Shown piece after piece: positions 7,386 to 9,649 of a stretch of DNA of 64,000 bases. The notes beneath the pieces are model-generated. The model was not told the origin of the DNA. It ran no database searches and worked only from the letters and a program-made list of their open reading frames with translations. Position 1 is the first letter of the stretch. Each line of letters begins with the position of its first letter. A program made the translations under genes and the position numbers. Source of the DNA: Escherichia phage SHEFM2K; sequence record PQ390715.1; one strand, 5' to 3'.

Positions 7386-8156
7386 TTAGATTTTCTCAAG
7401 GAACAAGTTTTCACATTGTTCTTCCCAATCATACGGATTGTTGTTATATACTGCTGAAATCAACAAAGGCATACGCAGGGATGGTGCACGAAGATTATCT
7501 TCATGTTTTAACATCCAGTTCAGAATTGCTTTACTGCCGTTACTGTTAACACCTTTAGATGCAAGAATATTAGTCTTAGTCATTACATTTTCAATATGAA
7601 TCATGATATCACTTTTAGTCTGAATCTGTAAATCCACGTACACAGAACGAGACATAAGAGCAGCATAATGAGCAGACATTTTAGTTTTAGCTTTAGCATC
7701 TAACGCTAAATCTTTGTTAGTAATGAATACGATGCGACCATTAAAATCAAAGCTATTAGGAATGCCGTTAGTGCTCAAGTACTTAGAGCTAGTCATATAA
7801 GATACAGTACGCTTACCACTATCCAAAACAGCTTTAAGTAGGTTCATACCATCTTCTGATTCAAAGATGCTATCCATATCATCAAGTACTAATACATTAG
7901 TGCTGTGACGATTCTTGTACAGAACTTCATACAGAGCAAGAGTAGTCATCTTACCACTGATAGTGGCTACGTTCCATTCTGCTGCGTCATGAGCTTTCTG
8001 GAGGCGTTGTGACAGGGTGTAAGTCTTACCAACACCAGGTGCACCGCTGACAACCATACTTTTTACAGTACTGCTATCGTCGAGCAAACACTCAAGAGCA
8101 ACCATCATGGAGTTGAAGTTTTTCTGGATTTGAATGCTACGTGCTTCTCTGGTCAT
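7386..8156 (-). CDS. P-loop NTPase (AAA+-like ATPase)
   Basis: Walker A GAPGVGKT, Walker B VLVLDDMD, sensor-like IVFITN; GAGGAT RBS. Confidence 0.7.
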   Translation of the reverse strand: MTREARSIQIQKNFNSMMVALECLLDDSSTVKSMVVSGAPGVGKTYTLSQRLQKAHDAAEWNVATISGKMTTLALYEVLYKNRHSTNVLVLDDMDSIFESEDGMNLLKAVLDSGKRTVSYMTSSKYLSTNGIPNSFDFNGRIVFITNKDLALDAKAKTKMSAHYAALMSRSVYVDLQIQTKSDIMIHIENVMTKTNILASKGVNSNGSKAILNWMLKHEDNLRAPSLRMPLLISAVYNNNPYDWEEQCENLFLEKI

Positions 8157-8184
8157 TTCGTTATCCTCATCAGTTGATGAAATA

Positions 8185-8217
8185 ATTATAGCAAAAAGGG
8201 CCGACCGAAGTCAACCC
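8185..8217 (-). promoter_or_regulatory. terminator-promoter cassette (PeSL-like), copy 1
   Basis: Minus strand GGGTTGAC-TTCG-GTCGGCCC hairpin + T5 + TGcTATAAT; TTGACT inside 5' arm sits 18 nt from -10. Confidence 0.7.
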
Positions 8218-8224
8218 TTTTGTT

Positions 8225-9649
8225 TTAGATAATTTGTACTTCACCATAGATCTGCACAATTTGCTTTCCTGGATTCTCTTCAATGAGTTTAAGGAAAGAT
8301 TTCAATATTTTTTCATGATCTTCATAATCTGCTATTCGCATGAAATTATAACCATTTGATATGGCATATTTGTTTTTAAATTCATCTCTCTCTCTCAATT
8401 TCAAATATGATTCATATGTTTTATTAAAATATGCTGTTGGATTGTAATGTTGCACTCCATCTTTTTCTAATAATAAATTAAATTCTGGAACATACAAATC
8501 ATATGGCAACAAGTATCCAGTTTCAGGATTTCTACAATTTTCAAAACGTTTTTGTGTGATATAATTGTCGAACAAAGGATAAATTATTTCTGTTAAAATC
8601 TTACCATCAGTGGATGTATTAAAGTCAGAACCTCCTTTTAATTGTATAAATTTTGGATATATAAACATACCATTTTCAAGTTCTAATTCAATGATAGTAT
8701 TAATTCCTTTAACATTACCAATTATTTTATTAAATTGAAATTTTTTACCCTTGCAATATTTTTTCGACAATTTTATTATTCTTTCTTTTGTATATCTTGG
8801 ATTACCTTTCCAAGTTGGATGCATAATCTTATCGTAACTAGTTGTATATGAAATATCATCAACTGTATATTCAACCATGCTCCTAGTACTGTTATATTCT
8901 ACAATTTCATATTCATTGATATTTAGTTTTTTCATTTTTTCTGAAATTCGATTATTCACCTCTTCATTAGTTATATTCGGTAGATTACCTTTCCATTCAT
9001 TATAGATTAATATATTAAAATCAACATATTTTTTTCCTTTCTGAGTTGGTTGTTCATATTCAATACAACTAAACACACCATTAAATTTACTAATTGAGAT
9101 AAATCTCAAATTATGTTCATTTAATTTTTTTATAGATATATTTTCTACTTCTTCATATGAATAACATGGGCTTCCCCCTTTAAAATCTTTTATTAATGAA
9201 TTGAATGATATAGAAAATATTCTTTCACGTCCTTCAATTGTATAATTGATTATAGTTCGTGCTCCATTAAATGATGCAATGCTATGAAAATTAAATTTAT
9301 CATATTTTTTAAATATATAAATGGACTCATTTATAATTTGTTCCAAGGTTCTACATATTCTACCTGGTTTATATCTATGATCAGCGAATTTTGTTTTGAT
9401 ATTTGATATTGAATGTTCATATACCATATTATCATATTCAAAATACACATGCGTATGTGAACTTTTCCATGTTGGATCTTTAAAACCAATAAATTTAATA
9501 GAATTTACATTTTTAGAGAATAGTTCCATTAAATCTTCATAATGCAAATAAGGTGACATTTGGTTATGATTTTTTTGTATATATGAATTATAATGTGTAT
9601 AATCATAATATTCATAAGTCGTTCCAAATTTATCAATATAAATTTTCAT
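8225..9649 (-). CDS. putative endonuclease with C-terminal Vsr/DUF559-like PD-(D/E)XK domain and repeated N-terminal beta-rich modules
   Basis: 474 aa; C-terminal ..YLLPYDLYVPEFNLLLEKDGVQH..YNFMRIADYE resembles Vsr/DUF559 nuclease core from memory; internal repeats (..SKFNGVFSCIEYE.. / ..ASFNGARTIINYT..). Confidence 0.5.
   Translation of the reverse strand: MKIYIDKFGTTYEYYDYTHYNSYIQKNHNQMSPYLHYEDLMELFSKNVNSIKFIGFKDPTWKSSHTHVYFEYDNMVYEHSISNIKTKFADHRYKPGRICRTLEQIINESIYIFKKYDKFNFHSIASFNGARTIINYTIEGRERIFSISFNSLIKDFKGGSPCYSYEEVENISIKKLNEHNLRFISISKFNGVFSCIEYEQPTQKGKKYVDFNILIYNEWKGNLPNITNEEVNNRISEKMKKLNINEYEIVEYNSTRSMVEYTVDDISYTTSYDKIMHPTWKGNPRYTKERIIKLSKKYCKGKKFQFNKIIGNVKGINTIIELELENGMFIYPKFIQLKGGSDFNTSTDGKILTEIIYPLFDNYITQKRFENCRNPETGYLLPYDLYVPEFNLLLEKDGVQHYNPTAYFNKTYESYLKLRERDEFKNKYAISNGYNFMRIADYEDHEKILKSFLKLIEENPGKQIVQIYGEVQII

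Follow-up and report, generated by a model that had tools for sequence, protein, structure and literature searches.

Free-standing homing endonuclease genes (HEGs) are known from phage T4. The seg and mob genes of T4 are intergenic, seven out of twelve free-standing HEGs are promoter-less cassettes that use upstream transcripts, and HEGs may replace one another at one site, as segH and hef do for mobC and mobE (PMC2988022). Cleavage sites of the seg and mob enzymes often lie hundreds of base pairs from the insertion, in a conserved neighbour (PMC2988022). Here we describe a locus with a similar organization in a 64,000-nucleotide stretch of Escherichia phage SHEFM2K (PQ390715.1; below, the window). 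It consists of a 474-codon gene, HE474, and the adjacent gene of a 256-residue ATPase. The initial annotation of the window suggested a defence or exclusion pair, the alternative being a free-standing homing endonuclease (HE) beside an unrelated ATPase. We consider it highly probable that HE474 is a free-standing selfish HEG and the ATPase an unrelated resident, not its functional partner, and that the two do not form a new defence system.

The EDxHD family of homing endonucleases is defined by equivalents of the Vsr residues E25, D51, H64, H69 and D97 and an acidic, conserved residue where Vsr has F62, and takes in free-standing phage enzymes of the Hef type (Taylor et al. 2011, PMC3239194; for the Hef-type enzymes, Sandegren et al. 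2005, as cited in PMC2988022). CapR domains form the DNA-binding part of homing endonucleases of phage ICP1 and of the domesticated PLE protein CapR (Netter et al. 2021, PMC8096241).

The PeSL, a composite promoter and stem-loop element, was defined in T4-type phages, where recombination between copies shuffles cassettes of ORFans (Arbiol et al. 2010, PMC2839356). The shuffling was shown experimentally in RB49/phi1 and attributed to passive recombination, and the authors speculated about an unknown "helper" protein targeting the conserved stem-loop (PMC2839356).

Occupancy of the slot upstream of the ATPase gene

The window belongs to an Asteriusvirus, a jumbo coliphage of the PBECO4/121Q group, the nearest record being Escherichia phage BAU.Micro_ELP-22 (98.6% identity). 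The two open reading frames (ORFs) of the initial annotation are both present, on the minus strand, as is every neighbouring gene. The order along transcription is denV, p119, p77, the 474-aa gene, the ATPase gene and an array of small membrane-protein genes:

7386..8156, minus strand: ATPase gene, 256 aa, phrog_1250
8225..9649, minus strand: HE474 gene, 474 aa, phrog_559 and phrog_9084
9646..9879, minus strand: p77, a 77-aa gene, phrog_34150
9945..10304, minus strand: p119, a 119-aa gene
10368..10802, minus strand: denV, 144 aa in the window

A chance origin of a 474-codon ORF in DNA of 24.8% GC is ruled out, the estimate being ~0.09 stop codons per random codon. The identical product of ELP-22 is already named "homing endonuclease" in GenBank (OR699282).

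We compared the genes upstream of the ATPase gene in eleven related loci. They are listed from the ATPase gene outwards, against the direction of transcription:

fEgEco12: denV directly
SP27: p119 directly
SD-15_S21: p77 alone
The window, ELP-22 and JNE01: HE474, then p77
JP4: a 372-aa ORF, then p77
vB_Ec-M-J: a 371-aa ORF, then p77
EJP2: three small ORFs, a 365-aa ORF, then p77
121Q: a 93-aa ORF, a 487-aa ORF, then p77
A4: a 565-aa ORF, then p77
slurp01: a 628-aa ORF, then p77

The ATPase gene is present in all eleven related loci, and the upstream slot is empty in three. All seven large occupants match endonuclease PHROGs of two classes, the Vsr class (474, 372, 371 and 365 aa; phrog_559/9084) and the phrog_681 class (487, 565 and 628 aa). 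Six of the seven have a common start point, ...GGAGTTTTAAGTAATG, and the same six have a common end, TAAA(A)C/AAAAGGGTTGAC, where the slash marks the junction. The exception is 121Q, in which the 3' end of p77 is different, the endonuclease starts a few tens of nucleotides downstream, and the 93-aa gene precedes the hairpin. The HE474 slot is thus one fixed intergenic position, flanked by conserved genes, which is occupied in some of the phages only and may hold alternative HEGs.

Full-length HE474 is found in two phage records, and homologs of the ATPase in 1,309 (tblastn), 1,292 of them near full length. The initial annotation had named separate occurrence in other genomes as evidence against a functional pair, and separate occurrence is what the comparison yields. 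In a defence or superinfection-exclusion system of two such genes, the ATPase would be the sensor or regulator and the nuclease the executing part (cf. Gabija, OLD, PARIS). The genes indeed lie side by side in one orientation, the ATPase has its Walker A/B motifs and the nuclease its active site intact, and exclusion by the nuclease alone is plausible, as co-infecting phages can undergo marker exclusion by homing endonucleases (PMC2988022). However, co-occurrence is absent (1,309 vs 2 records), and the ATPase gene is constant while the slot is variable, so that it adjoins seven different endonuclease genes, or none. Further, a predicted terminator–promoter element between the two genes argues against one operon. 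PADLOC has no match for HE474, and for the ATPase only P-loop-local matches (E 1e-3 to 3e-3). Finally, in JNE01 HE474 is 99.4% identical to that of the window and the ATPase only 59%, and the ATPase haplotypes are unlinked to the endonuclease class. The defence pair is hence hardly credible. The other reading of the initial annotation, a free-standing homing endonuclease beside an unrelated ATPase, agrees with the distribution, the precise insertion and the lateral transfer described below.

The insertion site

The HE-less allele of Salmonella phage SD-15_S21, in which ...AAGTAAA is directly followed by AAAAGGGTTGAC..., delimits the inserted segment:

8222..9648, minus strand: HE cassette, 1,427 nt

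The boundaries are ambiguous by a few nucleotides owing to A-runs. The cassette is promoter-less and lies between the last codon of p77 and the PeSL-like hairpin preceding the ATPase gene. In SD-15_S21, p77 passes from ...GTTTTAAGTAAA directly into the hairpin, AAAAGGGTTGAC..., and its product has 88 residues, stopping at a TAA inside the -10 box. In the window, the insert supplies the p77 stop codon TGA, which overlaps the HE474 start (ATGA). The Shine–Dalgarno sequence of HE474, AAGGAG, lies within the 3' end of p77, and the p77 3' end is the endonuclease ribosome-binding site in all HE-bearing alleles but that of 121Q.

We also considered SD-15_S21 as a deletion derivative. A microhomology deletion from the HE474 allele predicts ...AAGTAAAACAAAAGGG, with C, and the observed sequence is ...AAGTAAAAAAAGGG. 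This possibility was rejected, and it is more likely that the SD-15_S21 junction represents the native uninterrupted site.

The p77 gene is found in 28 records, all from Asteriusvirus, and is 94–100% identical over the seven loci compared locally, beside different endonucleases. It has no match in Pfam, NCBIfam or PADLOC.

This arrangement is close to that of the T4 seg and mob genes. HE474 is likewise intergenic between conserved genes, promoter-less and probably expressed via the transcript of the upstream gene, and its site in related phages is taken by HEGs of more than one family. Moreover, T4 mobD adjoins nrdC.11, in a gene neighbourhood shared with nrdC.10, the T4 counterpart of the ATPase gene (see below). 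On the other hand, HE474 is predicted to have the Vsr-type chemistry, not that of GIY-YIG or HNH enzymes, and the host genome is that of a jumbo Asteriusvirus. The overlap of the ATG with the stop codon of the upstream gene, together with matching junctions across two endonuclease classes, is also unusually tidy compared with the T4 genes.

PeSL-like elements

The hairpin at the right end of the cassette is part of a repeated element, AAAGGGTTGACTTCGGTC(A/G)GCCCTTTTTGCTATAAT, which has four copies in the window versus zero expected by chance, all of them on the coding strand:

8172..8224, core 8185-8220, minus strand: copy 1, immediately before the ATPase gene, marking the right end of the insert; -22.2 kcal/mol, z -5.3
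9897..9944, core 9906-9941, minus strand: copy 2, preceding p77, marking the left end of the larger p77+HE cassette that SP27 lacks
10831..10866, minus strand: copy 3, one mismatch, upstream of denV
15829-15864, minus strand: copy 4, more diverged (three mismatches, -10 box TATGAT), ~5 kb further upstream along transcription

In the promoter part, the -35 box TTGACT falls within the hairpin and is followed, after an 18-nt spacer, by an extended -10 box TGcTATAAT (score 11/12). The hairpin part has 12 bp, a UUCG loop and a U-run; its z-scores are -4.3 to -5.3, and none of 200 shuffles folds as well. Each Asteriusvirus genome has 3–8 copies, and 144 phage records contain related ones.

The element at 8185-8220 is predicted to end the p77–HE474 transcript and to promote transcription of the ATPase gene, and that at 9906-9941 is the predicted promoter of a p77–HE474 operon. 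Since a putative terminator–promoter element separates HE474 from the ATPase gene, the two are likely to belong to different transcription units. The initial annotation assigned each gene its own PeSL promoter. The composite element is real, and one copy stands directly upstream of the ATPase gene, but the 474-aa gene lacks one of its own; its start codon overlaps the stop codon of p77, and the closest element, 9906-9941, precedes p77.

Like the PeSLs of T4-type phages (PMC2839356; Comeau et al. 2014, PMC4122927), the elements combine a sigma-70-type -35/-10 pair with a G/C-rich stem-loop terminator, are intergenic, repeated and clustered in a hyperplastic region, and border variable cassettes, and the "empty" allele with a single copy fits the excision/insertion model. 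Unlike them, they reside in a jumbo Asteriusvirus rather than in a T4-like phage; in the subclass seen in the window the -35 box is within the hairpin, and the number of copies per genome is only 3–8. By sequence and layout, PeSL-type elements are present in jumbo Asteriusviruses, beyond the T4-like phages where they were defined.

One more region may be mentioned here. Downstream of the ATPase gene, at 7319-7385, TTGACA and TACTAT are 17 nt apart, with an inverted repeat GTACTAC...GTAGTAC between the hexamers. The layout resembles another PeSL subclass; the fold is no better than that of shuffles (z -0.95).

Composition and exchange between genomes

Among all stretches of 1,425 nt in the window (mean 33.3%, standard deviation 2.5), the HE474 gene has the lowest GC content, 24.8%. 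At third codon positions the GC content is 16%, versus 36% in the ATPase gene. No further copies of the HE474 family were found in the window.

In JNE01, where the ATPase gene is so diverged, p77 is 100% identical to that of the window. At the DNA level, the identity is 98–100% across 8244-9893, ~60% below 8143 and 34% above 9944. These drops place the exchange boundaries within the two PeSL-like elements. This pattern points to a very recent lateral transfer of HE474 into a diverged background.

The 3' part of the gene has a different history:

8225..8376, minus strand: HE474 3' tail, the last ~50 codons (...YEDH..SFLKLIEENPGKQIVQIYGEVQII), with DNA-level homology to the Vsr-class alleles of JP4 and vB_Ec-M-J

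The homology coming from the ATPase side (blastn) reaches position 8376 in JP4 and 8356 in vB_Ec-M-J, and the third-position GC content of the tail is 44%, compared to 15% in the remainder of the gene. The tail thus marks a recombination breakpoint, and HE474 is chimeric, with a foreign body and a tail of the resident type. The C-terminal tail peptide is near-invariant in alignments, which is explained by recombination of the HE474 tail from an allele of the resident type.

The larger polymorphism comprises p77, the endonuclease gene and one element: the window has two near-identical flanking elements, and SP27 has a single one. Hence one may ask whether the endonuclease is simply passive cargo, like any ORFan, and all the variation is due to PeSL-mediated modular shuffling, that is, to recombination between repeats, possibly via mini-circles. 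The position of the p77+HE unit between two near-identical elements, the single element without the unit in SP27, the JNE01 identity boundaries within elements and the presence of 3–8 copies per genome are consistent with that, as is the mechanism demonstrated in RB49/phi1 (PMC2839356). However, the insertion of the endonuclease gene alone, seen in the comparison with SD-15_S21, is left unexplained, as the left junction, in the 3' end of p77, has no PeSL. Moreover, the slot is filled only by endonuclease genes, seven of two classes, and six of the seven share the exact junction. As a complete explanation, pure shuffling seems to us rather unlikely, while still deserving consideration; it is best seen as a layer complementary to homing rather than as an alternative.

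A more specific possibility is that the slot endonucleases themselves recognise the PeSL-like hairpin junction, TAAA(A)C/AAAAGGGTTGAC, so that breaks at PeSL copies would drive the shuffling and p77 would be a landing-pad gene. If true, the p77 3' end would supply a ribosome-binding site to any arriving endonuclease. Two nuclease classes with shared junctions at the hairpin, exchange boundaries within elements and the low copy number of the element are consistent with such recognition. But the carrier's own 4–8 uninterrupted copies would be cut as well, and free-standing phage homing endonucleases normally target the coding sequence of a conserved neighbour, which makes this possibility very unlikely.

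The nuclease domain of HE474

The C-terminal part of HE474 is the nuclease domain:

8228..8617, minus strand: nuclease domain, residues 345-474, Vsr-like fold; candidate catalytic residues D348, D384, E395, D397, H401, D422 and K425

In an exhaustive HMMER search over 1.84 billion cluster representatives, 5,871 proteins reached E <= 1e-3. In nearly all cases the match covers only residues ~345-455 of HE474 and lies at the C-terminus of a protein of 200–530 aa. The family of the nuclease domain thus has thousands of other members, which are uncharacterised. Close homologs are few, and HE474 itself is known only from three near-identical genomes and one metagenomic cluster.

For the comparison of structures, the C-terminal domain was remodelled alone by AlphaFold2 (AF2), and the closest structures are the following, with the two comparison values for each:

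E. coli Vsr (1cw0): 10.8, 14%
I-Bth0305I catalytic domain (3r3p): 8.5, 20%
RAP domain (9gek): 8.3, 16%
endonuclease-like protein NGO0050 (3hrl): 7.7, 21%

In Foldseek, 1vsr ranks first with the same model. Hence the C-terminal domain is modelled as a Vsr endonuclease fold. Foldseek with the AF2 model of the whole protein (mean pLDDT 57.5) produced meaningless matches only, which were set aside. In the search of the whole PDB with the sequence profile of the nuclease domain, AbaSI and I-Bth0305I were the sole matches, both weak, and the HE474 sequence as a single query had zero matches among PDB sequences, even at E 10.

The EDxHD motif corresponds to D348, D384, D397, H401 and D422, with E395 as the additional acidic residue; this correspondence comes from a sequence alignment and not from a superposed active site. 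In the first position HE474 has D348, a conservative substitution of E, which is retained by the relatives. In 13 homologs D384, E395, G398 and K425 are invariant, and H401 and D422 near-invariant. The Vsr/DUF559-like nuclease core proposed in the initial annotation is therefore correct: the Vsr fold is seen in the C-terminal model and the catalytic residues are intact. In particular, loss of catalytic residues, suggested there as possible evidence to the contrary, is not observed for D384, E395, D397, H401, D422 and K425.

HE474 differs from EDxHD enzymes, including I-Bth0305I (PDB 3R3P), in the first motif residue (D, not E), in an additional C-terminal helix and hairpin tail common to the Asteriusvirus alleles only, and in being neither intron- nor intein-encoded. 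Judging by the alignment, HE474 is a free-standing Vsr-fold EDxHD homing endonuclease, of the lineage to which I-Bth0305I and the Hef enzymes of phages belong.

The N-terminal region and the repeated modules

Upstream of the nuclease domain, HE474 has two further regions:

9353..9649, minus strand: N-terminal domain, ~99 residues, common to a few collinear relatives, 33% identity to the EJP2 365-aa protein
8618..9352, minus strand: four CapR/treble-clef-like modules of ~60 aa, residues 100-162, 163-225, 226-285 and 286-344

The repeated modules noted in the initial annotation are thus found as ~60-aa units. A collinear alignment with five relatives shows the shared ~99-residue N-terminal domain, and then the Cys-less modules of HE474 opposite the C...CxxC modules of the relatives. 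HE474 has two modules beyond those of the collinear relatives. It contains five scattered cysteines and no CxxC pair; its modules are devoid of any zinc ligand, whereas the relatives keep C...CxxC. The modules have kept their hydrophobic periodicity.

Relatives of HE474 carry tandem CapR-homology (PF21817), DUF4379 treble-clef and DUF723 modules in Pfam, and HE474 itself matches none of these three. The CapR test is passed by the relatives P0005, P0006 and P0162 and by 121Q gp221, the 121Q 487-aa protein having three CapR domains. The profiles of the HE474 modules and the CapR repeats are matched by hhalign with probability 20% (E 1e-3, 35 columns); the proposed homology to CapR/treble-clef modules is therefore drawn from the collinear alignment. 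The four modules presumably form the DNA-binding region of HE474.

The resemblance to the ICP1 enzymes and PLE CapR is that relatives of HE474 and alternative occupants of the slot have tandem CapR (PF21817) or treble-clef modules, presumed to be the DNA-binding part. The differences are that CapR is joined to a T5orf172/GIY-YIG-type domain in the ICP1 enzymes and to a Vsr-type nuclease here, and that HE474 fails the Pfam CapR model and has no CxxC...CxC ligands. A DNA-binding region of the I-Bth0305I type, NUMOD and helix-turn-helix (HTH), had no Pfam match in HE474; in its place are the ~99-aa domain and the four zinc-less modules. We treat this as a subfamily difference, because Taylor et al. 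(PMC3239194) admit Hef-type members with other N-termini.

The lost zinc ligands may mean that HE474 is a decaying or domesticated non-homing derivative with a passive spread, for instance a regulator that binds DNA as PLE CapR does, or a non-specific nuclease retained in some other role. All four modules lack the Cys/His ligands kept by the collinear relatives, the first EDxHD position has changed from E to D, HE474 is restricted to three near-identical genomes and one metagenomic cluster, and a homing endonuclease with CapR domains has been domesticated before (PMC8096241). On the other hand, D384, E395, D397, H401, D422 and K425 are all in place, the 474-codon ORF is intact in all copies despite the 25% GC content, the modules have preserved their hydrophobic periodicity and have been duplicated rather than eroded, and the transfer into a diverged background seems to be very recent. 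Decay or domestication is hence unlikely.

The ATPase gene

The ATPase has a Walker A motif, GAPGVGKT, at residue 38 and a Walker B motif, VLVLDD, at residue 88. In an alignment of 58 homologs the invariant residues are G38, G41, G43, K44, D92, D93, N147 (the sensor-1 position), R170 and R228. This bears out the initial assignment of the 256-aa protein as a Walker A/B ATPase.

The protein matches phrog_1250 (E 3e-103). Among the records found by tblastn, homologs are named nrdC.10 in the T4-like phages RB51, JS98, Bp7, Aeromonas phage 25 and Vibrio phage nt-1. The identity to annotated nrdC.10 products is 37–39% over 94–98% of the length. The NrdC.10 family (phrog_1250) is a conserved hypothetical early gene of T4-like and jumbo phages, and the window ATPase shares with it the full-length similarity, the Walker A/B motifs, sensor-1 and the Arg residues. 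It differs in having no N-terminal extension of ~75 residues, the match beginning at profile position 77 of 327. The gene is thus the ortholog of T4 nrdC.10, a resident conserved AAA+ gene outside the mobile element.

Comparison with Pfam, NCBIfam and, using the family profile, PDB produced only generic AAA+/P-loop matches and no specific function. In PDB these were P-loop-local matches to RFC4, Orc1 and Cdc6 (E ~3e-3), and in NCBIfam weak matches to Orc1/Cdc6 and Hda, far below the cut-off. So we only say that the protein looks like an initiator/clamp-loader-like AAA+ ATPase, without a functional assignment. The literature search on NrdC.10 function found a single paper, which remarks merely on a weak AAA motif.

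The GenBank names of NrdC.10-family genes are inconsistent: "thioredoxin", "clamp loader of DNA polymerase", "transcriptional regulator FleQ" and "archaellum component FlaC". The domain analysis presented here supports none of the four.

Other polymorphisms in the neighbourhood

Directly downstream of the ATPase gene, at 4911-7318 on the minus strand, there are at least seven head-to-tail genes of 104–141 aa, encoding predicted multi-pass membrane proteins. In many members of this array the stop and start codons overlap. The last two genes, 6639..6977 and 6977..7318, are paralogs (54% identical). The copy number varies among relatives, and the copy closest to the ATPase gene is absent in vB_Ec-M-J and fEgEco12.

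A second indel polymorphism in the same hyperplastic region lies between denV and p119 (10305-10400 in the window, 6293-6760 in locus L001 of ELP-22, 1950-2100 in locus L010 of slurp01). The window and slurp01 have the short denV (144 aa), followed at once by the p119 promoter. In ELP-22, SP27, 121Q and JP4, denV is ~27 codons longer, and there is an additional ORF of a 64-aa membrane protein (~360 bp more). Therefore, by the states of this indel, the window is a mosaic of ELP-22-like and slurp01-like segments.

Just upstream of denV, a 137-aa "HNH endonuclease" gene is present in JP4 (L005 6571-6984), vB_Ec-M-J (L006 5919-6332) and fEgEco12 (L007 4612-5025). In the window and ELP-22 its place is taken by a short spacer only. 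This is a second site of HEG presence/absence, ~1 kb from the HE474 site.

Discussion

We infer cleavage and homing by HE474 from the presence/absence polymorphism, the lateral transfer and the foreign composition. The upstream PeSL-like early promoter would drive transcription of p77 and HE474 together, and translation of HE474 is probably coupled to that of p77. In a mixed infection, HE-less genomes would receive a double-strand break from the enzyme, at the locus or close to it. A candidate cut site is the uninterrupted junction of p77 and the hairpin; alternatively, the cut may be hundreds of base pairs off, in a conserved neighbour, as with the T4 seg and mob enzymes. Recombinational repair from the HE-carrying genome would then copy the cassette in. 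As for the larger p77+HE unit, recombination between the flanking PeSL-like repeats would account for its being present in some phages and absent from others. The ATPase gene would be just a downstream neighbour with its own promoter, at most a possible target or a homology flank.

Several observations weigh against HE474 as a homing endonuclease unrelated to the ATPase. The edges of the JNE01 exchange coincide with the PeSL-like repeats, and hence plain homologous recombination without an endonuclease may have produced it. A co-conversion signature linking polymorphisms at the 5' end of the ATPase gene to the endonuclease class was looked for and none was found: the 5' haplotypes do not track the class, as JP4, with its 372-aa endonuclease, and SP27, with none, share one haplotype. 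Therefore the ATPase gene cannot be nominated as the target. The loss of all zinc ligands from modules of a DNA-binding type, together with D instead of E in the first motif position, implies that HE474 could be decaying or repurposed, and the N-terminal two-thirds of the AF2 model of the whole protein have low confidence. Finally, it is the distribution, and not biochemistry, that speaks for the absence of a functional link between the ATPase and HE474.

The modestly unusual points of this locus are the zinc-less CapR-like modules, the allelic series at one junction and PeSL-type elements outside the T4-like group. The apparent "ATPase + nuclease" signature is likely an accident of a selfish gene beside a resident gene, and the distribution across relatives separates such cases quickly. 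The locus forms a natural series, from no p77 to p77 only and further to seven endonuclease alleles of two classes. It may be used for mapping targets of the barely characterised free-standing Vsr/EDxHD enzymes, and could show whether zinc-less CapR-like modules still give specificity.

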